A stretch of 64,000 nt of DNA from Longimicrobiales bacterium (lineage in GTDB: Bacteria; Gemmatimonadota; Gemmatimonadetes; Longimicrobiales; Gaopeijiaceae): the NCBI GenBank assembly GCA_963664435.2, contig CAXXKM010000001.1, positions 1,152,001-1,216,000 on the forward strand, in the 5' to 3' direction. Made by a program: the position numbers and the translations under genes. The notes beneath the pieces are model-generated. The model was not told the DNA's origin. It searched no databases and worked only from the letters and a program-made list of their open reading frames with translations. Shown here in pieces: positions 2,933 to 14,513 of the stretch (positions within the stretch are counted from its first letter, which is position 1; every line of letters starts with the position of its first letter).

Positions 2933-3031
2933 ATGAGTCGACGCGGAAAGCTACTGCAGAGGTATCAGGTACGGCAGGTCCGTGGCGTTATTCTGAAATA
3001 CAATCTTGGGGACAACCTGGATGATGCATAA
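2933..3031 (+). pseudogene. hicA: HicA-family toxin remnant (internally deleted, 32 aa)
   Basis: MSRRGKLLQRYQVRQVRGVILKYNLGDNLDDA* joins a HicA-like N-terminus directly to the YQVxQVR.I.KY.LG C-terminus; its stop overlaps the hicB start. Confidence 0.7.
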
Positions 3032-3236
3032 GTACGAGATCATTCTGTATTGGAGCCGGACCGACGGCGCGTTTGTGGCCGAGGTCCCCGAGTTGCCTGG
3101 CTGCATGGCCCACGGAGGCACACAGCAAGTCGCTCTCCGGAACATCACGAGCGCGATGGATCTCTGGATCGATACCGCAAGGGAACACGGAGATCCGATA
3201 CCGGAACCCAGGGAAAAGCGTCTAATGCCGGCGTAA
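3024..3236 (+). CDS. hicB: HicB-family antitoxin
   Basis: KYEIILYWS..DGAFVAEVPELPGCMAHGGT...AL.N...AMDLWI......G.PIPEP. Confidence 0.92.
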   Translation: MHKYEIILYWSRTDGAFVAEVPELPGCMAHGGTQQVALRNITSAMDLWIDTAREHGDPIPEPREKRLMPA

Positions 3237-3263: not shown

Positions 3264-5423
3264 CTACCCCTCCGGCCTCACGATCTCGTACTGCGGCGGC
3301 GGCTCCGCCCCCAGCAGGTGGCGCACGAAGTAGTCCCACCGGCGGCGGATGAAGTAGGGCTCGTTGAGGCCGTGAGCGCGGTCCGGAGCCCAGATCAGGT
3401 CGAAGTCGCGGTTGGCCTTGATGAGCTCGTCGATCACCTGGACCGTCATCGCGGGGTGGACGTTGTCGTCCATGTCGCCGTGCATCAGCAGCAGCTTCCC
3501 CTCCAGGTTCGCGGCGTAGGTCTTGTTCGCTGAAGCCTCGAAGTTGTCGGTGCCGGTCGAGTCCTCTTCCATGACGCCCTGGTACTTCTCTGCCCAGTAG
3601 ATGTTGTAGCTGCGGTTGTCGTGGTTGCCGGCCCCTGACACCGCCACCTTGAAGAAGTCGGGATAACGCAGGATGGCATCCGTGGAGGCGAACCCGCCGC
3701 CCGAGTGCCCGTAGATGCCCACCCGGTCCAGGTCGATGAAGGGGTGGCGCGCCGCGAGCTGCCGGATCACGGCGATGTGATCGGGGATGCCGTTGTCGAT
3801 GAAGTTGCCGTAGTAGTTGTCGTGGAAGGCCTTGGAGCGGTGCGGCGTCCCCATGTGGTCGATCTGCACCACCACGAAGCCGAGCTGCGCCAGCGCGAAG
3901 TTCTCGCCGCCGCCCTTGAACTCCCAGTCCCCGACGCTGCCCCGCTGGGGCTCGGGGTAGATGTGCGAGATGATCGGGTACTTCGCGTTCTCGTCCAGGT
4001 CGGGTGGGAGATGGAGGATGCCGTACAGGTCGGTGATTCCGTCGCGCGCCTTGGCCGTGAAGACCTCACCCGGGATGAAGCCGATCTCCTCGATGGCGGA
4101 GATGTCCGCCCGCTCAAGTTCGCGCACGACGCGGCCGTCGGCTACGGTCCGCAGGACGGTGACAGGCTCCCCTTCAACGCGCGAGTACGTGTCCACGAAA
4201 TAGGCGCCGCCGGGCGAGAACTCGACGATGTGGTTGGCGTCCTCCGGGGTGAGCAGCGTCAGCCCCGAGCCGTCGAAGCCGACCCGGTACAGGTGCGCGT
4301 AGTACGGGTTTCGCCCCGGCTCGCGGCCGCGCGCGGTGAAGTAGATGCGCTGCCGCGCCTCGTCGACGAAGACGGCCTGGCCGACCGTCCATGGGCCGGA
4401 GGTGATGCGGTTCCTGAGGTTGCCCTGCCCGTCGAAGCGGTAGAGGTGGGCCCAGCCGTCGCGCTCCGACCACCAGATCACGTCGTCGCCGCTCTCCGAG
4501 ACGTACCAGGACGGAGTGCCCCCGCTCGATCCCCCGCCCCGGTGACCGAGCGACACGAAGGTGCGTGTGGAGTCGCCCAGGATGACCCGTGAAGCCCCGG
4601 TCGCCGGGTCGATCTCGGCCAGGAACACGCGCTGTGAGCCGCGGGTGAAGTAGTTGACGTGCAGACGGGCGCCGTCGGCGCTCCAGGCCGAGTCCGGGGC
4701 CGAGCCGGCGAATGAGAGCTGATGGGGCGTGGGCGCCACATCGACCCGGCGATTGGCGGCGGCGCGCAGGGCGGGGACGTTCCCGTCGGCCATCTCGCCC
4801 TCCTCAAGCTCCACGATATGCACGGTGGGCAGCGGGATCACCGAGTCGCCGGGCAGCGCGTACGGCTGGGAGAAGTGCCGCGGCCGCTGCGAAGTGTACG
4901 AAACGTAGTGCATGTGCTCGACGTTGCGTTCATCCCGGCGCGCCACCGCGATGTAGCGCGAGTCCGGCGACCAGGCCAGCGTGGGGGTACGCGGCCCCGG
5001 CCCCTCCCGCTGCTGGTTGGGGCGTGGCTCGTTGTAGCCGTAGGCGTAGTGCTTCTCGCCGTCCGTGGTGAGCTGGATCGAGTCGCCGCCCCCCGCCGGG
5101 CGCACGTAAAGATCATACTCGTGCGAGAAGGCTTCCCAGCGCCCGTCGGGGGACTCCACGAAGGGCAGCCGCGAAGGGAGCGTGTCCGCCACGACGCACG
5201 AGTAGCCCGCGATGTCGCAGGTGAAGCGCCGGCTGTTGGCCGTGAACTCGATTTCGCTCTCGCCCGCGCCGAAGCTGAAGGTGCTGAAGGGCAGCTGGTC
5301 CGGGACGTAGGCGGTGTCGTTCGCGAGCGACATCGCCCCGGCCAGGCGGTAGTGGTCGAAGAGCGGTTCGCGGCTGGCCGCGGCCGGGTTCACCATCACG
5401 AACTCGTAGCCCGACCCCGTGTT
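3264..5423 (-). pseudogene. S9B (DPP-IV-like) peptidase, 3' part, separated from its N-terminus by the integrated element
   Basis: DPP-IV N-terminal propeller plus GIYGHSGGG / DDNVH / RAHG catalytic motifs; no signal peptide; in-frame TGA 8 codons upstream of the core, inside the element. Confidence 0.92.
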
Positions 5424-5432
5424 GTTGCGGTA
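5424..5432. repeat. att core (left copy) GTTGCGGTA
   Basis: Identical to 14298-14306; reads TAC CGC AAC (YRN) on the minus strand, in frame with the 3' peptidase part. Confidence 0.92.
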
Positions 5433-6042
5433 GCGGATCCCCAGAGGCCAGAATCACGGCAGAAGATCGTCTAACTACTTACAGGACTGCACGATCTGCG
5501 TTTTTGCCGTTGGGCCGCATCCGCTCCCGTCGTCCAGAAACAGCGGGGAAATCGCCTCAAATCGCGGGAATCTCGTTCGACACACGGCCCTTCCCATCGC
5601 GGCCTCTTCAGAGCCGCAAGCAAGGTAACCACAGGTCACCAATCGGATCGACTCGGGTCATCCCCTCGGCCATTGCACCCGCACACGCTACCAAGGCCAC
5701 CCGTGGCCGGTGCTGTTATCGTACAAGGATCCCGTACGATGCGAGCGAGACCTGCCCGAGAGCGGTGGCCCAGCATGTACTGTCCCGGCGGAGTGGCGGC
5801 GGGTGTGAATCCCGGCATGACCGCTTCCCACGCATGCGCCAAGACGGGTCCGAGCACCGCAAGCTCCGGGTGGTTGGGCTTCTACGCCTGTCAATTACGC
5901 GCGTGGAATGGCGAAACTGGCGCGCCCGAACGCGAGGACTTACGGTTCAGGAGGCGAAAGCAACACCCACAGGCACACGTTCCGAGAAGGAACAGCGCCG
6001 ATCCCGTCCAACGATCTTTACACGACTTGGAAGAGTCACGGC

Positions 6043-6555
6043 ATGAAGAGGAAACACGTTCTGGTGGTGTTTGCGATCTGGTTCGTGGGCGCGCTCATCG
6101 CCATCACGCCCTACCCCGCGCCTGTCCCGCAGGAGCAGGAGTGCTACGAGGTCGGAGAGATCGAGTGCGTCAACACATCGGCGGGCTGGGTCGCGACGTG
6201 GCCCGCCAGCCAAGAGTTTCGGGACCATATGATCGAGACCATCGACCTGCTTGAACTGTCGGGCGACTTGAACTGGCAGCAGCAGGAATTCTGCGTCCCG
6301 ATCCTCAACAACGTGAAGGGTGAGTTCCGGTCCCAAGTGCTCACCGGCCTGGGCATCTACGAGTTCAACATGTCGCACTACCACGAGGGGGTCCAACTCC
6401 AAGGACGCCACGCGCCCGGACACGGCCACCCGCACTACATGTTCAACCGCGGGCGTTGGGGCCTGATGGGGACCCTCATGATGCACGAAGTCGCGCACCA
6501 CCGGGGCCTCACCCATTCCAGCGCGAACACCGCTGAAACGTGCCTCGACCTGTAA
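6043..6555 (+). CDS. Small secreted putative zinc metalloprotein (HExxHxxGxxH)
   Basis: Hydrophobic signal-like N-terminus MKRKHVLVVFAIWFVGALIA; C-terminal HEVAHHRGLTH; 4 Cys. Confidence 0.7.
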   Translation: MKRKHVLVVFAIWFVGALIAITPYPAPVPQEQECYEVGEIECVNTSAGWVATWPASQEFRDHMIETIDLLELSGDLNWQQQEFCVPILNNVKGEFRSQVLTGLGIYEFNMSHYHEGVQLQGRHAPGHGHPHYMFNRGRWGLMGTLMMHEVAHHRGLTHSSANTAETCLDL

Positions 6556-6571
6556 GGATGGAGGAGAGACG

Positions 6572-7099
6572 ATGAGACACGCACTACTCGCAACGACACT
6601 GATGCTCGCTCTCGCGGCCTGCACGGACCAAGCCGGCATGATGGACGCCGAGTTTTCCCAGGAGGATGTCTCCGGGGCCGCGCTCGATCGCGCGCCCCAA
6701 GCGGCCACCATGAAGGAGGACGAGCGTCACCCGCTGATGCTCGCGATCCTCGACAAGCTGCTCGCCGAGCACCCGGACGCCGCCGGCGGGCGCGTCAACC
6801 TAGACGGCATGTTCGGGGGCGCGTACGTGGGCGAGACCGTCACCCGTGCCGGCCAGAGCTTCGAGCGGGTTTCCGCTGGCACGAAGGTGGAGAAGGGCAC
6901 CTACACGATCACGTTCCAGGACCTCAAGATGACGGCGACCAACGAGGCCGTGATGGGCGTCGGGCTGCTCCACGCGGACGAGAACGGGAGCGTGTTGGAC
7001 CACGTGTACGAGGTTCTACTCGTGCGCGACGACGACGACATATGGACGGCCGACCTCACGTACAAGGGACACTTCGACGGGGTACTCGAGGGAAGCTGA
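6572..7099 (+). CDS. Hypothetical lipoprotein
   Basis: GGAGGAG RBS; lipobox MRHALLATTLMLALAAC; 16 bp after the previous stop. Confidence 0.8.
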   Translation: MRHALLATTLMLALAACTDQAGMMDAEFSQEDVSGAALDRAPQAATMKEDERHPLMLAILDKLLAEHPDAAGGRVNLDGMFGGAYVGETVTRAGQSFERVSAGTKVEKGTYTITFQDLKMTATNEAVMGVGLLHADENGSVLDHVYEVLLVRDDDDIWTADLTYKGHFDGVLEGS

Positions 7100-7619
7100 C
7101 CCGCATTTCCCGCACCAGAGCAATCTGTGACCGCGACCGACAGGCAACGCGAGCGCGGAGGACTGGTGCCCGTGTGTGCTACATCGCGTCGCACGATCTG
7201 AACCGTTGCGGCCGGTAGCCGCTCTCAACAGCAGGCCATCGGTCCTCTGCTCTTTGGGCGGGAACACAGCACCTATGCAGAAGGCGCCGTAGAACAGCGT
7301 CCCCGTTCTCCCTTGAACTGAATCTCCAGCGCGTCCTCCAGCCCCCGACCGGACGGTTACGAGCGGCGGCCCGTCCCCAGCGCCTCGACACGGGCCAGGC
7401 GGTCGCAGGAATAGGAAGCGAGGAGCGACGCCAGTCGTTCAAGCTAATCGCCGAGCGGGCCGACCGGGTAGCAAGAACCGGTCGCTGAAGGACCACACCC
7501 GATTCTCCAAGGTCTTCGGGGCCATGACGGATTTCCGGCTGGCTTACAAAGCGCCCGCCTGAGGGGCGCGGGCGGCCCGCCGAGACATTGCGGGGGTGTT
7601 TTCCGCCCCGTTGGCGACG

Positions 7620-7821
7620 GCCGGTGTCGAAGCCCCGGAGTTCAGGGCCCGGGCAATCTGGTTAAGGTTCACGCCGATCCGGCGGAGTTCGACGCGCTCC
7701 CATGCACCGAGATGCGTGCCGCCGCGGCCCGCTCGGCGATCTCGGCGGCTTCCGCGGTCGTTGCGCGCACGCCGATCATGCGCGTCTTGCGCTCGGCTTC
7801 GGGCTTCTGGGGACGGGCCAA
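7620..7821 (-). pseudogene. mobC: mobC (relaxosome accessory) remnant, internally deleted/frameshifted
   Basis: AAGGAGG RBS + TTG; ARPQKPEAERKTRMIGVRATTAEAAEIAERAAAARISV in one frame and ELRRIGVNLNQIARALNSG (MobC motif) in another. Confidence 0.8.
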
Positions 7822-8010
7822 GTCGGACGGCCTCCTTGGGTGGCTCGCGGAATGTTGTTGCGGGCTCCGGGGGATTACCCCCGGCCAGAGGTTTTCGAGA
7901 AACGAAAAACACATCTTTTCGGCTTTCCGGCATCGGAACCCAGAGTCTTGCGGTGTGCCACCCGTCCCCATAGCGTCAAGGACCTCACCCAAACGAAGAG
8001 GAGGCATAGC

Positions 8011-8523
8011 ATGAAGACGCGTGTATCGATCCCGTGGCTGGTTGCGGTGGTCGCGCTTGCGGCATGTGACGGGTCCACGCGACCGGATGGGCAGCAGCCT
8101 GATAGTGTGGAACCACCAGGGTGGCCGCTGAAGGTTGGCGACAGGGTGGGCGAGGTGACGCGCTCGAGGTTAAAGCGCGAGTTCGGCACCATCGTCCTGC
8201 ATCACCAGTTCGTGAAGAGACCTGCCGAATACACACATCCGAATCAGGAGCGTTACGGGTTCGCCGAGTTCGAGATCATGTACGAGGAGACCGGCGGACT
8301 GACTGAGGGCGAGGACAACGCGCTGTATGCGTGTGAGGATCCACCGGCACCTTCCGCCAACGGGACCATCTCGATCGACCAAGAAGACGGCGATTCCGAC
8401 GAGATCGAGCCTTGGAAGACGGTGGACGGCGCTTACAAGTTCTCGTTTGCGGCGAGCGTTCGGTGCGACCCCGACAAGCGCTACAGAATGCTGTATGTGT
8501 ACCGGGGGCACGTCCGTCCGTGA
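8011..8523 (+). CDS. Hypothetical lipoprotein
   Basis: GAGGAGG RBS; lipobox MKTRVSIPWLVAVVALAAC; acidic C-terminal half. Confidence 0.78.
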   Translation: MKTRVSIPWLVAVVALAACDGSTRPDGQQPDSVEPPGWPLKVGDRVGEVTRSRLKREFGTIVLHHQFVKRPAEYTHPNQERYGFAEFEIMYEETGGLTEGEDNALYACEDPPAPSANGTISIDQEDGDSDEIEPWKTVDGAYKFSFAASVRCDPDKRYRMLYVYRGHVRP

Positions 8524-8987
8524 GGATGGTCGTCGGATGCCTGTGTGCATTCGTCCTGTCCGCGTTCGCGCCGGTGTCTCAAAGCGAAGAGATCGAAAAG
8601 GAATTCGAGAAGAAATGGAGGTGGAACGGCACCGGTCGGTTGTGGACGGACACCGAGCTCGGCTTCTGGAGCCAGCGCCTCCGATTCCTCGATTGGGACG
8701 CGACCACCGAGTGCCAAAACCACCGCAACGCGATGGTGAGCCTCTACAACGGCGGTCACGATTTGGGATGGGCCAGCCCCAGGGGCAACCGCGGTGGCAC
8801 GCACTTCTGGCGTGGCCAAGAGGATTGGATCATCATCTCGCCAAAGGGCTTCGGCGGTCGCCAGAACGACGATGTGGTCAGATCCATGGTACACGAAGCG
8901 GCACACCATTTTGCCGGGCCACAGGCTGGACATAGCCAAGACTGGCAGGAAATCGTCGATTGTGTCCTGTCTTATTCGGGAGCGTGA
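8520..8987 (+). CDS. Small secreted SprT-like HExxH zinc protein
   Basis: GTGA overlap with the upstream stop (alternative ATG 8526); signal-like N-terminus; MVHEAAHHFAGPQAGHSQDW resembles the SprT-type HExxH...GH..W motif. Confidence 0.7.
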   Translation: MRMVVGCLCAFVLSAFAPVSQSEEIEKEFEKKWRWNGTGRLWTDTELGFWSQRLRFLDWDATTECQNHRNAMVSLYNGGHDLGWASPRGNRGGTHFWRGQEDWIIISPKGFGGRQNDDVVRSMVHEAAHHFAGPQAGHSQDWQEIVDCVLSYSGA

Positions 8988-9529
8988 CTTCTAGTTGCCT
9001 TCGGGTTGATCGCGTTGACGGCGTGCGGTTCGTGACAACGCCTCCTCACTCGGTCGTCCCGCGGCCCAAGACCTTCGCTCTTGGATTCGGTAGAAACCCG
9101 GACAGGACAGACGGCGTAATGGTTCCTTGGCCGGTTCCTCCCAAATCCGATCTTCCGTCCTGAGGTGTTGCGGACTTGAAGCGCGCTCGCCAGTGCCCCG
9201 GAGTTCCGACTTGCAACCGTACTGGAGTGCGAGAACGACACGGGGGGTCGATGTGCATTTTGGCATTCCAGCGATGCGCACGGACGTTCGCGCCTATCCG
9301 CATGCGCAACAGCGTCCTTGCGGCCTCGCCGCCCCGTTCGCCTGTGGCGTAAGGGGCGCTCGGGCCGTGACGCTAGTCTCCATGTCAAGTGGACGCCAGT
9401 TTTTCTCGAAGCGACCTGCCTCGCAGCGCCCCTCGCGACGCTTCCGCTTCGGTGCTCATTCTGGCCCGGCTCGATCATCTGTGAACGCTCCCCGCCGGGC
9501 TGGGCGTTGGGAATGGCCGGGCAGGAGTA

Positions 9530-10090
9530 TTCGCCCGGACGATGCGCCGTCCAAGTGCGGTCCTGCTGCACTAGAGGGCATTGGCGAGGATGAGGAGTCT
9601 CCGCATCATGGCCGTCAGGGCGACCTTCGGCGGCTTCCCTCGGGCCACGAGCGCTTCCTACTTCCGCTTGACGTCGGGAATATGGCGGACGACAACTATC
9701 GCGGGCATGTAGAGGAGCCTGCGCACCCGGTGCCTGCCGCCCTGGATGAAGCCGCGTCTCTTCCAGTATCCAGACACTTGGGTTGACCGGGGCCAGCCCG
9801 GCGAGGCTGGCGGCTCGGGCACCGGTGAGTGCCCAGGTACGGCAAGTGGACGATCAGTCCCTCGGCGGTGGCGTCCGAGATCGAGCCGCCCGCCGGATCT
9901 CGGCGTCTATGAACTTCATCCGGGCGCTCGATCTGCCTCAGCCTCTTTCGACGGCAGCTGCCATGGTGGCCAGCATCCGGGCGTCCACCGCGTCGGTCTT
10001 GGCGCGTCGGTCATGAGAGCGGGCGAAGGACCGGACTCGGAAGGGGTCGATCACGTAGAGGGGGAGTCCGGAGTCCCAAACGGCGGAGGA
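9530..10090 (-). pseudogene. IS110-family transposase relic
   Basis: Fragments GLPLYVIDPFRVRSFARSHDRRAKTDAVDARMLA, AASLAGLAPV, SGYWKRRGFIQGGRHRVRRLLYMPA, GKPPKVALTAMMRRLLILANAL; in-frame TAG at 9660-9658, frameshifts, central part missing. Confidence 0.88.
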
Positions 10091-10909
10091 CGGGCATGTT
10101 CGCCGTGCTGTGCGCGGCCGCGCTGTGCGTCGTGCGACGTGACGCGCGCGCGCCCGGGCTCGAACTTCTATGGGTCCGAGGAAGGCAACGGGCCGAGGCG
10201 GTTGGTAAACGCGGGCGGCCTGCGGGACGGGTCCCGTGCTGGAGTTCCACGTGCCCGACCGGAAGCTGGCAGGTCTCCACAGCGTCCGCGTCGTCGAGAT
10301 AGCCGGTCAGGACCACTGGCTCCTCGAAGCGGACGACCACCGGGCCACCGTCGCGCGCTGACGGCGGGAGCGTCGTAGGTCGGCCAACGCGCCGCCTTGG
10401 AGAGTTCGCCCCGTTGCTGAAACACTTTGGCACGGTCGCCCGTACGGGGATGCCTGGTAGCGCGAACAGGCTCGCCAGATGCCGAAGGTGGAGGCGTTTT
10501 CGACAAGCCGCTGGCGGCGGATTCCCGAAGCTCCCGTACGTTACCGGACATCCTCGAACGTTACCGGACAAGAGGAGGTTTCCGAAGGGTTGACTGCCTC
10601 AAGGACGGTTGTTCAACGTCTCGGCTATGGAGACGCTGACACAGCCGCTCGACAGGGAAGCGGGCGGTACGATCGCCCATCGTGACGGCCGCCAAGGTGC
10701 GCGCGGGTCCTTCGACTTGACCGGACACCGGACCGAATCGATTGCGCTCGCATGCCGCTGCGGAGAGGCGTTCGCCCACGCCCGGCGTGCGCGGCTCATG
10801 GACCGCGCAAGCCGAGGCGCCGGGCAGCGCATGAGCGCGTCGAGGAGGTCGATGCCGACCTGTTCCCGGGCGCGGCCCACGGGGGCGTTGGTCGCTGTTA
10901 AGGCGTCCA

Positions 10910-10943
10910 GCCAGCCTACCCATTGTCATACAATGGGGCTGGC
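10910..10943. other. Candidate oriT hairpin
   Basis: Imperfect inverted repeat GCCAGCC-TA-CCCATTGT-CAT-ACAATGGG-GCTGGC about 100 bp upstream of mobC; position typical of oriT, nic site not identified. Confidence 0.45.
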
Positions 10944-11047
10944 GAGGGGCTGGCTCCCGCCCCCCCTTCGAACCCCCCGCTGTTCGCGCTCCCGAGGAGG
11001 TCGCGGATGGGGGCGCCGCCCCCTTTCCCCCGTGTCGGTGCGGCGTG

Positions 11048-11386
11048 ATGCCTGAGCGCCGCACCGCCGTCGTCACCGCCCGCGTGTCGGCGGCCGAGTC
11101 CGCCGACTGGCGGGCCAAGGCGGAGGCCGCAGGCATACCGCTGTCCGCGCTGATCCGGCGGGCCATGGCCCGTACACGGACCTGGACCGCACGCGCGGCC
11201 GAGGTCGAGCGCGAGCGCACCCGGCAGGTGTCGCGCGTCGGGAACAACCTCAACCAGATCGCCAAGTGGGCCAACACCCACAAGGGGGCGGCCGAGGCCG
11301 TCGAGGTCCTCGCCCGGCTTGTGGCCATCGAGCGCGCGCTCGGCGCGCTGGCTCGCTTCGAGAGTCCGGACTCCGATGCACGTTAA
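11048..11386 (+). CDS. mobC: MobC/MbeC-like relaxosome accessory protein
   Basis: RHH-like N-terminus (TARVS..E..W..KA..AG..LS.LIR) and RVGNNLNQIAKWAN motif; overlaps the relaxase start. Confidence 0.92.
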   Translation: MPERRTAVVTARVSAAESADWRAKAEAAGIPLSALIRRAMARTRTWTARAAEVERERTRQVSRVGNNLNQIAKWANTHKGAAEAVEVLARLVAIERALGALARFESPDSDAR

Positions 11387-12947
11387 GTTCTTGGCGCACG
11401 GGACCGGCTCGGCCGGCAAGGCGGCAGGCTACCTCCTCGGGGAGCGGGACGCCGCCGGGAAGCTGCGCGAGGGCGTCGAGGTGTTGCGCGGGAACCCGGA
11501 CATGGTGGCCGCGGTCGCCGACTCGCTCGACTTCGAGCACAGGTACACCTCCGGCGTGATCGCCTGGGCACCGGACGACCACCCCACCGACGAGCAGATC
11601 GAAGCTGTGCTCGACGAGTTCGAGAAGACGGCTTGGGCGGGGCTGGAGCCCGACCGGTACGCCTGGGCGGCCGTGCTACACCGTGAGGAGGGCGGAGGCG
11701 CGCACGTCCATGTCCTCGCCGCTCGGTGCGACTTGGAGACCGGGCGGAGCCTCAATATTGCGCCACCGGGTTGGCAGCGGACGTTCGATCCGCTCCGCGA
11801 CGCCTTCAACCACGAGCACGGCTGGAGCCGTCCAGACGACCCGGAGCGGGCCAGAGTGCAGCACCCCGGCCACCGCGCCTACATCGAGGCGACCCGGCTG
11901 CGGGCCGGACTACGGCTCGAATCCTCCCCCCGCGACCTGATCCGGGACTACCTGCTCCAGCGTGTCGAGCACGGCGCGGTCAAAGACCGCCACGATGTTG
12001 TCGCCGCGCTCCGGGAGGCGGGCCTTGAAGTGCCGCGCCAGGGCATGGACTACATCACCGCGCTGGACCCCGAAACCGGGGACCGGTGGCGGCTGAAAGG
12101 AGAACTGTACGGAGTTGATTTCCAACGCGAACGATTTGACCGAACGGCTGCGGAGGAGGCTGGAACACGAGCGCAGGGAGATCGAGGAGTTGACCGCGAG
12201 CGAGCTCGAAAGGCTCGGCGAGCACTCGCGGCGCGTCGCGAGGAGCGCGGTGCGTACCATCGAGCGCGATACGGAGGAGGCGACCGGCAAGATGCGCGAG
12301 TTGCTGGTCAAGGCGTGGCAACGGCCGCTGATCGTCGGCCTGAGTCTTTGGATCGGTTTCTTCGGCGGAAGCTGGGCGACGATGCGCTGGTTGGCGGGCA
12401 GCATTCAGGACCGGATCGTGACCCGAGCCGAACTGAACCGGGACATCGAAGACGCCCGGCGGACGCTGGCCCAGCTGGAGGAGGACACCTGGGGGCTCGT
12501 GTTCCACGAGATCAAGGGCGAGAGGTTCGTGGTGGTGCCGGACGGGGTGCTGGACGATCCGCCCTGGTGGGTGGAACCGGGGCACCTTCCGGCGTTGAAG
12601 CTGTCGAACGAGTGAAGGAGATCTATGACCGCGTTAGAGGAGCAGTTGACGAGGGCCTTGCGGAGGCTGTGCGCGCAGTACGAAACGGAACAGCAGCGGC
12701 ACTCCGAGCAGGTCGCAGCCTTGCAAGGGCACGTCGAGCGGCAAGGCGGAGAGATCGAAGCCTTGCGGCAGCACGTCGAGCGGCAGAGCGCGGAGTACGA
12801 AGCCTTGCAGATGCAAATCGAGCGGCTCGACGCGCTGGCGACACGCTTGGCCGAGTATTTCGGGACATCCGCCGTCGCGAGACGGCGCGGCCTCCGTATC
12901 TGATGCGCCGCCCGGGACCGGACCGCGATCAAGGTCCGAGCCGCTGA
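11376..12947 (+). CDS. Relaxase, ColE1 MbeA-like (MOBP5-related) with a 3-His motif
   Basis: MHVKF..HGTGS.....YLLG, VLRGNP, RYTSGV, LHREEGGGAHVHVL...DLETGR.L; C-terminal DRDQGPSR tail. Confidence 0.9.
   Translation: MHVKFLAHGTGSAGKAAGYLLGERDAAGKLREGVEVLRGNPDMVAAVADSLDFEHRYTSGVIAWAPDDHPTDEQIEAVLDEFEKTAWAGLEPDRYAWAAVLHREEGGGAHVHVLAARCDLETGRSLNIAPPGWQRTFDPLRDAFNHEHGWSRPDDPERARVQHPGHRAYIEATRLRAGLRLESSPRDLIRDYLLQRVEHGAVKDRHDVVAALREAGLEVPRQGMDYITALDPETGDRWRLKGELYGVDFQRERFDRTAAEEAGTRAQGDRGVDRERARKARRALAARREERGAYHRARYGGGDRQDARVAGQGVATAADRRPESLDRFLRRKLGDDALVGGQHSGPDRDPSRTEPGHRRRPADAGPAGGGHLGARVPRDQGREVRGGAGRGAGRSALVGGTGAPSGVEAVERVKEIYDRVRGAVDEGLAEAVRAVRNGTAAALRAGRSLARARRAARRRDRSLAAARRAAERGVRSLADANRAARRAGDTLGRVFRDIRRRETARPPYLMRRPGPDRDQGPSR
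12115..12615 (+). CDS. MbeB-like mobilisation protein overprinted in the relaxase (+1 frame)
   Basis: AAGGAG upstream, TTG start; charged coiled-coil N-terminus plus one TM segment (PLIVGLSLWIGFFGGSWA); same position as mbeB within ColE1 mbeA. Confidence 0.72.
   Translation: MISNANDLTERLRRRLEHERREIEELTASELERLGEHSRRVARSAVRTIERDTEEATGKMRELLVKAWQRPLIVGLSLWIGFFGGSWATMRWLAGSIQDRIVTRAELNRDIEDARRTLAQLEEDTWGLVFHEIKGERFVVVPDGVLDDPPWWVEPGHLPALKLSNE
12625..12903 (+). CDS. MbeD/MobD-like protein overprinted in the relaxase (+1 frame)
   Basis: AAGGAG RBS; MTALEEQLTRALRRLCAQYE resembles the MbeD N-terminus (MTELE..L..AL..LQQ.Y); coiled-coil. Confidence 0.78.
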   Translation: MTALEEQLTRALRRLCAQYETEQQRHSEQVAALQGHVERQGGEIEALRQHVERQSAEYEALQMQIERLDALATRLAEYFGTSAVARRRGLRI

Positions 12948-13039
12948 TGGCTCAGGGCAGGGCTGGATCTGGCGCGGGCAACACCGCTCAGCGAAGTTTC
13001 GTTCGCGCAGATCGTGCGGTCCATCACGAGAGGAATCGA

Positions 13040-14203
13040 ATGATGGCACGCACGAAGCGGGACCGGCGCAGCTACAGCGCCGGCGAGTGGGGCCGGAACC
13101 GGGTGAGGGTGTTTGCCGATCCCAAGACCGGTCTCTACCAGATTGAGTGGCGAGAGAACGGGCGCAGGCTCACCCGATCCCTGAAGCACCGGGACTGGTC
13201 GAGAGCCAAGCGGCAGGCCGACGAGGCCGCCGCAGGCCTCGCGACATACGAGCCCAACGGCAAGGCCGAGGCCGAACCCGAGCCGCTCACTCTGGAGAAG
13301 CTGTTTGACATTTATGGTGAGGAGGTGACGCCGACCAAGGGCGAGCACACCCAACGACACGACAAGATCGCGATGCGGATGTTCCTGCGGTTCTTCGGGA
13401 AGGACCGCGACCCGGCGACACTGTCACAGAGGGACTGGGACCGCTTCATCCGGGCGCGGCGCGCGGGCAAGGTCGGACCGAGCGGCAAACCCGTATCCGA
13501 CCGGACGGTCGAGTGCGACCTGCGGTTCCTGATCGCGGTGCTCAACTGGGCGGCGAAGTCCAGGGACGAGCAGGGGAGACTCCTGCTCGACTCGAATCCG
13601 CTGAGGGGCCTGAAGACGCCCAAGGAGAAGAACCCCACCCGCGTCGTCCTTTCGGAGGAGGAGTACCAGGCGATGCTCGGGATATCCCGGCAGGTCGATT
13701 GGCGGTTCCGCGTCGCGTTCGTGCTCGCCCACGAGACCGGACACCGAATCGGAGCCATCCGCAACCTTCGTTGGAGGGACATCGATTTCGAGGGTCGCGA
13801 GGTGCGGTGGCGCGCTGAACACGAGAAGACCGGCTACGAGCACGTCACGCCGATGACGGACGAGGCGGTAGCAGTGTTGGAGGAGGCGCGCGAAACGAAC
13901 CCCGGGAACGGGAAGACGCCGGTCTTGCCCGCGCTGCGGGACCCCTCGGCGAGCATCAGCTCTAGGCTGGCGGGTGCATGGTGGCACAAGGCCGAGCGCC
14001 TTGCGGGGCTGGAACCCCGGCGAGGGAGAGGCTGGCATTCGCTCAGGCGGAAGTTCGCTTCGGATCTCATGGACTTGCCGCTCAAGGTGCTGTGCGAACT
14101 GGGCGGCTGGAAGGAGGCCCAGACGGTGCTCCGCTGTTATCAGCAGGCCGACGCTGGACAGCTCAGGAAGGCTTTGGAGAGTCGGCCGAGAGTTCGCGCC
14201 TGA
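13040..14203 (+). CDS. Tyrosine recombinase/integrase
   Basis: ETGHRIG.I..LRW.DIDF, EKTG, HSLRRKFAS, LGGW, RCY (R-K-H-R-W-Y catalytic set); GAGG RBS before 13040; alternative ATG 12947 overlaps the relaxase stop; ends 94 bp before the right core. Confidence 0.95.
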   Translation: MMARTKRDRRSYSAGEWGRNRVRVFADPKTGLYQIEWRENGRRLTRSLKHRDWSRAKRQADEAAAGLATYEPNGKAEAEPEPLTLEKLFDIYGEEVTPTKGEHTQRHDKIAMRMFLRFFGKDRDPATLSQRDWDRFIRARRAGKVGPSGKPVSDRTVECDLRFLIAVLNWAAKSRDEQGRLLLDSNPLRGLKTPKEKNPTRVVLSEEEYQAMLGISRQVDWRFRVAFVLAHETGHRIGAIRNLRWRDIDFEGREVRWRAEHEKTGYEHVTPMTDEAVAVLEEARETNPGNGKTPVLPALRDPSASISSRLAGAWWHKAERLAGLEPRRGRGWHSLRRKFASDLMDLPLKVLCELGGWKEAQTVLRCYQQADAGQLRKALESRPRVRA

Positions 14204-14297
14204 CCCAACTCGATTGGCGGGAATCAAACAGCGGGAATACGGTGTGTGAGTCCCGTAAGGTCAACGGTCACAGCAAGTTGTGAACTCTATGACTTCC

Positions 14298-14306
14298 GTT
14301 GCGGTA
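14298..14306. repeat. att core (right copy) GTTGCGGTA
   Basis: Identical to 5424-5432; codons 70-72 (YRN) of the peptidase 5' part. Confidence 0.92.
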
Positions 14307-14513
14307 CCAGAAGCGGTCGGTGTCCCCCGTTTCCAGCCAGTTCGGCACTACTTCGGCCCCCGCGATCATCCGCTCGGTGTTCCAGGTCAGAAAGCGCTCG
14401 GCGCGGGAGTAGTCCACCTCCTGGGCGGCGGCCGCCCCACCCCCGGCGAAGGCTGCGAACAGGGTCGCCAGAGCGAACGGACGAGCGACGGAAGCATGGA
14501 CCGGATAACGCAT
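14298..14513 (-). pseudogene. S9B peptidase 5' part (signal peptide + first 72 codons)
   Basis: GGAGG RBS, MRYPVHASVARPFALATLFAAFAGGGAAAAQEVDYSRAERFL...PNWLETGDTDRFWYRN; joins in frame to NTGSGYEFVMVNP at 5423. Confidence 0.9.

Follow-up and report, generated by a model that had tools for sequence, protein, structure and literature searches.

A putative integrative mobilisable element at a preferred site within a DPP IV-like peptidase gene of a Longimicrobiales bacterium

Results

The interrupted gene and its junctions

This report concerns a stretch of 64,000 nucleotides (the window) from the genome of a Longimicrobiales bacterium (assembly GCA_963664435.2, contig CAXXKM010000001.1, positions 1,152,001 to 1,216,000), in which a gene for an S9B, or dipeptidyl peptidase IV (DPP IV)-like, peptidase is split by an 8,874-bp insert. 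To judge from its genes for a tyrosine integrase, a relaxase and MobC, the insert is an integrative mobilisable element (IME). The 5′ part of the peptidase gene (14307-14513, minus strand) carries the start codon and encodes a predicted signal peptide, two helices and the beginning of propeller blade 1, as seen in the translation and in a structural model of an intact orthologue, and is 89% identical to the beginning of the intact orthologue in genome G005. The 3′ part (3264-5423, minus strand) holds the remaining propeller and the catalytic domain (GHSGG with Ser646, DDNV at 724-727 and His756), matches DPPIV_N (6e-52) and Peptidase_S9 (6e-41) of Pfam, and has a Gly563Glu substitution at 3951-3953. 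A propeller, an alpha/beta hydrolase fold and a Ser-Asp-His triad, found through Pfam, PDB sequence matches and the model, place the product among the S9B peptidases. The model of the intact orthologue (pLDDT 78, pTM 0.80) matched DPP IV structures at E 2e-48 and TM 0.7-0.8, with an identity of 22-23% to the solved enzymes, and in it the insertion point falls inside strand 68-73 of the first propeller blade. A HicB-like antitoxin gene at 3006-3236 is convergent on the peptidase 3′ end.

The insert is bounded by two exact copies of a 9-bp core, GTTGCGGTA, at 5424-5432 and 14298-14306, and the repeat extends on neither side. These are the only copies in the window; the 4.5-Mb genome of the window (G000, genus g1) has 44, from which the chance expectation within 100 bases of any given point is about 0.001. 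The right, integrase-proximal core encodes Tyr-Arg-Asn on the minus strand, and the same junction is present in L003, L004, L127-L129 and L133, while the inner 7 bp of the left core (5426-5432) are common to all the sites mapped below. When the 8,874 bp were taken out in silico, a single stop-free frame of 791 codons resulted, from ATG 14513 to the stop at 3264. Read back into the element, the 3′ part meets a TGA eight codons upstream of the core and gains no replacement 5′ end, and the 5′ part continues for nine element-encoded residues and then stops, ending after 81 codons. Since the predicted rejoined junction is present as one run in 13 uninterrupted same-genus orthologues (86-93% identical), the join is proven. 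An earlier reading of the window from its sequence alone (the sequence-only reading) had described the two repeats, the in-frame rejoining to 791 residues and the absence of a replacement N-terminus, and all three are borne out.

The mobilisable element

The tyrosine integrase gene (13040-14203, plus strand; PF00589 1.4e-19, over cut-off) encodes 387 residues, among them R236, K263, H333, R336, W357 and Y367, which stand in the usual motifs and which we take, by the family consensus, to be the catalytic positions. The R-K-H-R-W-Y set appears to be kept, as the sequence-only reading had claimed; the most likely integrase start is ATG 13040 and not 12947. Also on the plus strand are genes for a MobC/NikA relaxosome accessory protein (11045-11386; PF21983 6.5e-13, PF05713 5.6e-12) and for a MOB-P-type, MbeA-like relaxase (11376-12947; PF03432 4.6e-7, over cut-off; NF047848 1e-28, under cut-off). 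Two small plus-strand genes overlap the relaxase frame (12115-12903), one with no family match (12115-12615) and one MbeD-like (12625-12903; PF04899 5e-4 and NF033829 3e-4, both under cut-off). With integrase, relaxase and MobC over their Pfam cut-offs, the earlier claim of a small mobilisable element holds. The insert has the marks by which IMEs are recognised, namely direct-repeat att cores with a known empty site, and a relaxase of its own accompanied by MobC. Neither the open reading frames (ORFs) that were scanned nor those of the 8.9 kb that scored as coding revealed a mating apparatus, and no replication or partition family was recognised among the element ORFs in Pfam and NCBIfam profile scans; promoter and terminator scans gave nothing useful. 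Candidates for a helper system in G000 are four VirB10-family genes.

The left end (5433-5575, plus strand) has a conserved motif (5484-5500) and, at 5542 and 5563, two likely arm sites; it is near-identical in seven members of the integrase lineage, and about 45 related ends occur in G000. The right end (14216-14297, plus strand) has two GCGGGAAT repeats (14216 and 14230). Most of the 27 family members listed in G000 conserve them past the end of the integrase gene, and they are likely to be arm-type sites for the integrase.

Integration sites of the lineage

The end sequences were searched in 401 genomes of the order, 314 of the family and one metagenome collection, with the same places in G005/G062, G200/G061 and G265/G063 counted once for each pair. 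Since the scan of genome contigs covered 41 of 64 parts, the lineage is under-sampled and junction totals are lower bounds; further integrases of 89-99% identity exist on contigs beyond those mapped. At least 11 junction sites were mapped, of which eight hit the FWYRN codons of S9 genes, whether orthologue or paralogue, and three lie elsewhere. The S9 junctions comprise the orthologue in G000, G011 (C5) and G265, a paralogue 61% identical to the window protein in G168 and G265, and all three metagenome contigs. The three others (G005, G200 and G011-C2) each lie at Leu/Val-Arg-stop codons that the insertion leaves whole, one of them at the end of a beta-lactamase-fold gene. All 11 sites share the 7-bp overlap TGCGGTA, which occurs 392 times in G000. 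The S9 site is strongly preferred and is not exclusive. Relatives have both an intact gene (the 13 same-genus orthologues) and, in several cases, a filled FWYRN site; the sequence-only reading had held that related integrases at unrelated sites would reduce the locus to a passive insertion, and three of the 11 junctions of the same lineage are of this kind.

A 99%-identical element at the same site in a peptidase gene of about 91% identity, seen in read run X7, was left out of the junction count, and four further family-level matches to the 16-base left-junction pattern were rejected as chance. In G011, two left ends of the lineage (C5 184339-185708; C2) stand against a single right end. With the query used, no 5′ part of the G011 split gene turned up; the contig ends 1.4 kb into the element, consistent with either a gap or a loss. 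The 10.5-kb copy in G265 (L138) has the integrase and no relaxase or mobC match to the window, and by eye also carries an AlpA-like ORF, an ATPase gene and an HEXXH protein.

Transfer between genera and occupancy of the site

The copies in G000 and in G168, a genome of genus g37, are identical at 8,883 of 8,883 bases, the latter lying in the paralogue. Since the orthologous peptidase genes of the two genomes are only 81% identical, an identical copy in another genus means that the element moved very recently. Both kinds of right junction, that of G000 and that of the G168-type paralogue, were present in the same runs in three of four cases. The element is thus in active circulation among co-resident symbionts, presumably by excision and conjugative transfer. 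Contig L129 is 99.2% identical to the window and has the same right junction with a different right-end variant. The copies differ in cargo and in length (8.9, 10.5, 20, 29, 38 and 54 kb), and HEXXH cargo is present in five of the seven scanned, two of these seven only in part.

Occupancy of the peptidase site is low, with two of 15 orthologue loci in g1 filled and 13 of the 14 same-genus orthologues besides that of G000 uninterrupted, although short-read assemblies may under-count filled sites. The overlap is perfect in 12 of the 13 intact g1 orthologues. The empty g1 sites include those of four genomes assembled into one to three contigs (G001, G005, G010 and G014). Among the 30 loci fetched from g37, an S9 junction without interruption was read in 20. 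The element sits elsewhere in G005 and in G168, where the perfect site of the orthologue is empty. For G006, G008 and G009 (96-100% complete) no orthologue was shown, only paralogues of 47-49% identity; G000 itself keeps intact peptidase paralogues at 43% and 35%.

A synonymous Arg codon alters the 7-bp overlap in many S9 orthologues, with 11 matches in g37 genomes, of which L162 and L181 are the two read as S9, and one of 13 in g1 (G010, L084). This could reflect escape from insertion or plain codon use.

Condition of the split allele

Codon 563 (3951-3953) specifies Glu in the G000 split allele, where Gly is present in 20 of 20 diverse homologues and in 62 of 63 homologous rows of an alignment that was not de-duplicated and whose one non-Gly row is a 31% paralogue. 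The residue stands two positions after a Tyr that aligns with the YGGP loop of the solved enzymes and belongs to an otherwise invariant YPGP loop, the change being private to this allele. In DPP IV the equivalent Tyr forms the oxyanion hole, according to PMC5807507, and we infer from the alignment that the Tyr near codon 563 corresponds to it. Glu563 agrees between the window and the contigs of runs X1 and X3. Gly563Glu may represent decay of the split allele; the earlier statement that neither half is decayed is upheld as to stops and the Ser-Asp-His triad but needs qualifying at this otherwise invariant Gly. Inactivating mutations in the halves had been named as evidence for a passive insertion, and what was found is this one change in an active-site loop.

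Assembled contigs of read runs

Seven runs (X1-X7) were examined as assembled contigs and not as raw reads; contigs drop rare forms, so the results limit common forms only. The sequence-only reading had proposed looking for the empty attB and circular attP junctions. No empty-site or circle joint was among the joints listed at 90% likeness, and none was listed at 99%. Cargo contigs were several-fold deeper than junction contigs in X1-X6 (in X1, 116.5 against 23.7 and 18.5), as opposed to 13.3 against 13.9 in X7. A free multicopy circle was not accepted as the source of this excess, since depth is summed over organisms and a second host accounts for it: in three of four runs a loose end at 14318 agrees with the paralogue junction of G168 type, and a contig break at 5451 lies where the left junction of that host joins. 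Some share of free circle may be present. In X6 the left-junction contig (5250-5451) had a depth of 179 against 53 for the right-junction contig (14289-14480), and the 3′ part of the integrase had no cover at 99%, perhaps reflecting mixed strains. There were no matches among viral contigs, and no RNA data set was listed as containing the element. Two of the runs that contain it best are labelled sponge metagenome.

Sibling elements

G000 contains about 30 related integrase matches, 66-89% identical; the nearest named integrases are from Longimicrobiales and Palauibacter assemblies. Of the 22 elements that could be paired in G000 (five of 27 integrases were unpaired), six, that of the window included, split coding-like frames as judged by a crude codon score, and the five others restore the frame on removal, in unrelated genes. 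Among relatives, 34 of 60 scored junctions adjoin a coding-like frame, by a filter that missed one true case. Two unrelated genes are hit again and again by a sister integrase lineage (core GCCGCAGTA; right end 83-86% identical), at four loci (L204, L205, L207, L208) and 11 loci (L203, L206, L209, L210, L216, L233-L236, L239, L240), with one further site in L212. These two genes share one DNA motif, the sites being Cys-Tyr-Cys codons; by eye, one target is rhodanese-like and one hydrolase-like. Target choice follows the DNA sequence and not the function of the gene.

Cargo and remnants

Cargo pair 1 (6043-7099, plus strand) comprises an exported protein with an HEXXHXXGXXH zinc motif (6043-6555) and a predicted lipoprotein (6572-7099). 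It had no family in Pfam or NCBIfam; its Atlas neighbours are unnamed, and the nearest named ones, zinc peptidases at 0.83-0.86, are a lead only. Cargo pair 2 (8011-8987, plus strand) comprises a predicted lipoprotein (8011-8523) and a small exported HEXXH protein (8526-8987), with an SprT-like match at 1e-3, under cut-off. Both pairs, which matched no family, are reminiscent of a protease-inhibitor pair (PMC8235301). On the minus strand are a mobC remnant (7544-7933; PF05713 2e-8) and a broken IS110-family transposase remnant (9375-10071; PF02371 and PF01548 fragments), which has BLAST copies elsewhere in the genome. The conserved non-coding stretch upstream of mobC (10914-11044, plus strand), at whose first base the similarity to L001-L003 begins, is from its position a likely oriT region. 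In L001-L003 (near 7960; window 10914) the end of another family member adjoins this stretch, inverted, as a nested insertion at the likely oriT region.

The integrase leader

The leader of the integrase gene (13006-13055, plus strand) is predicted by RNA folding to form a hairpin over the start codon (-27.5 kcal/mol), a feature found family-wide in G000. The 5′ arm of this hairpin and the left-end motif (5484-5500) are inverse complements: 16 of 17 positions are complementary and the mismatch is a G-U pair, and the motif pair recurs in most of the sibling elements in G000. In a co-fold, the left-end motif is predicted to pair with the 5′ arm and to open the hairpin.

Discussion

We consider it probable that the insert is a selfish, site-preferring element whose host tolerates the loss of a secreted DPP IV-like peptidase gene. 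By analogy with other tyrosine recombinases, strands would be exchanged across the 7-bp overlap with the help of arm-type sites near both ends, and relaxase-led transfer would proceed through a helper channel. The integrase would be expected to recombine the TGCGGTA overlap, flanked by imperfect inverted sites, and the element would now and then excise as a circle, be nicked by its own relaxase, pass to a recipient through a helper conjugation system present in the same cell and integrate there at whichever site matches best. The peptidase gene would be mended only in the cell that the element leaves, as a side effect. Circularisation would also place the left end after the integrase gene and could thereby raise integrase output; if the predicted pairing operates, it would favour integrase translation in the circle and hence re-integration, keeping the peptidase gene off in most cells. 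Of the two outcomes offered by the sequence-only reading, a recent knockout or an excision switch, the evidence favours a recent, unrepaired disruption by an excisable mobilisable element and disfavours the switch.

Several points weigh against a tolerated, selfish insertion. There was no direct sighting of the circle, the empty site or the transfer; none of the scanned ORFs was recognised as an excisionase, and VirD4 (PF02534) and VirB4 (PF03135) were not found in G000 with those models. A genome has about 390 matches to the overlap, and just one or two of them account for eight of the 11 junctions; so strong a preference for the S9 site is the pattern by which candidates for regulated gene integrity get picked. 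All four complete split alleles rebuild stop-free frames, their dN/dS of about 0.09 equals that of intact alleles, and the remaining split alleles keep Gly at 563, where Glu may or may not impair the enzyme. Furthermore, the site is filled in the species of G000 in every run whose contigs cross it, and two variants of the element occupy it; selection for the filled state could be the reason. Stop-free frames and the low dN/dS fit a recent insertion, but fit a maintained function as well; since the insertion is too young, dN/dS cannot separate the readings.

One alternative is an excision switch exploited by the host, in which a cue such as helper induction or a stage of sponge colonisation would cause excision in part of the population and turn the peptidase on, with re-integration turning it off again. 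It would agree with the lack of a replacement 5′ end and the exact restoration of the frame, with eight of 11 junctions in the same S9 codons across two genera, with stop-free split alleles whose dN/dS is about 0.09, and with the intact motifs of the integrase. We nevertheless hold it to be improbable. Frame restoration is a property of any conservative site-specific recombination and so is no evidence for a switch, and the sibling integrases split unrelated genes in the same way. A lasting association between element and target, which a switch would presuppose, is at odds with the two filled loci among 15 and with an element that is fully mobile, has just crossed genera, uses other sites and leaves perfect ones empty; three near-complete relatives show no orthologue. 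No replication or partition gene was recognised among the element ORFs, the Gly563Glu change sits in the split allele, and contigs cross both junctions unbroken in all runs listing them, with no joint at 99%, rare forms being dropped. In its most developed form, the switch would be transferable across genera of sponge symbionts: integration would shut the peptidase and bring in the zinc-peptidase-like and lipoprotein cargo, helper-induced excision would reopen it in a sub-population, and the end-joining RNA would reset the system. We regard this too as unlikely. Were excision found to depend on a cue, a secreted peptidase of symbionts would come under a switch that is not a phage and that passes between genera.

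A selected knockout or cargo swap, in which the cell in the sponge benefits from loss of the peptidase or from gain of the cargo (the zinc-peptidase-like proteins and their lipoprotein partners, or the surface proteins of other copies) and filled alleles rise without switching, would agree with the dominance of the filled state in the species of G000, seen in runs from two or three studies and for two variants of the element. Both S9 copies are hit in G265, and the relatives that show no orthologue together with the recurrent HEXXH cargo point the same way. Since most relatives keep the peptidase gene under purifying selection, the cargo is wholly different between copies and is carried to non-peptidase sites too, and drift in small symbiont populations would explain local fixation, we find this explanation doubtful. 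That the gene is not fully off is very unlikely. An in-frame GTG (5399) or ATG (5396) eight to nine codons past the core, with a whole catalytic domain behind it, could in principle yield a shortened cytoplasmic peptidase from an element promoter; nothing of the signal peptide, the two N-terminal helices or the first blade-1 strands would be left in the product, with the cut in the modelled strand 68-73. According to PMC5807507, the catalytic domain of a solved bacterial DPP IV includes residues 22-33 from the N-terminus. Neither a promoter-like site, by a weak test, nor a clear ribosome-binding site was found there. Misplacement of a repeated element into the gene during assembly, for which the roughly 30 related elements in the genome and the identical G168 copy would give occasion, is hardly credible, since contigs of several runs cross each junction without a differing letter and the independent contig L129, with variants of its own, has the same right junction.

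In its general plan the element resembles known IMEs, which have an integrase and a relaxase, no mating channel of their own, preferred and secondary sites and possibly several copies per genome, according to Guedon et al. 2017 (PMC5704250); the window element shares all of these features, with multiple related copies. By the same review, IMEs with a single tyrosine integrase mostly use tRNA genes or gene ends and leave the target whole, and disruption within dispensable genes (rumA, traG, maff2, snf2) is listed for serine-integrase IMEs. Here, by contrast, a tyrosine integrase disrupts the interior of a host peptidase gene, in Gemmatimonadota. The integrase clades of HE-PICI elements (regulated gene integrity), as described in PMC10111431, also disrupt one kind of gene repeatedly without replacement sequence and with some off-target events. 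By the computational marks of regulated gene integrity, the window element agrees in that its attP holds no replacement sequence and the target is broken, whereas specificity of the clade for the gene site is partial, with three of 11 junctions outside S9 genes. Disruption there serves satellite timing inside a helper prophage; here occupancy is low and no such benefit is evident. Active lysogeny (the Listeria comK prophage, SpyCIM1, B. subtilis skin and SPbeta), as reviewed in PMC13492144, is alike in that precise excision would restore the host gene, and unlike in being stimulus-dependent, with a kept episome or a terminal cell. The window element is non-phage, freely mobile between genera and absent from the gene copies of most relatives.

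The mobilisation region of ColE1 has the layout mbeC-mbeA-mbeB-mbeD. The window element has the same gene order and overlaps, with weak matches to the MbeA and MbeD models, but its relaxase scores 100 bits against a cut-off of 500 for MbeA and has an H-x(7)-H-x-H run in place of the HEN triad of MbeA, and its mobilisation genes are joined to an integrase and not to a replicon. In ICEKp1, joined element ends favour integration over excision and hairpins occur in the integrase leader, as reported in PMC13023037. The promoter switch of ICEKp1 was shown by experiment, whereas here there is a predicted RNA pairing, and the integrase sits at the opposite end.

No paper on this integration site was found in our literature searches; the candidate tables of Mageeney et al. 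2020 lay outside their coverage and may bear on novelty. The locus offers a clean case of a tyrosine-integrase IME that has the mid-gene codons of an enzyme as its preferred site and leaves the gene unmended, together with the recent passage of a 9-kb element, identical at every base, between two uncultured sponge-symbiont genera. In-frame excision is routine in this integrase family, which counsels caution in reading frame restoration as a switch. Finally, sibling integrases that are about 80-85% identical choose different DNA sites and provide a natural series for studying how integrases choose their targets.

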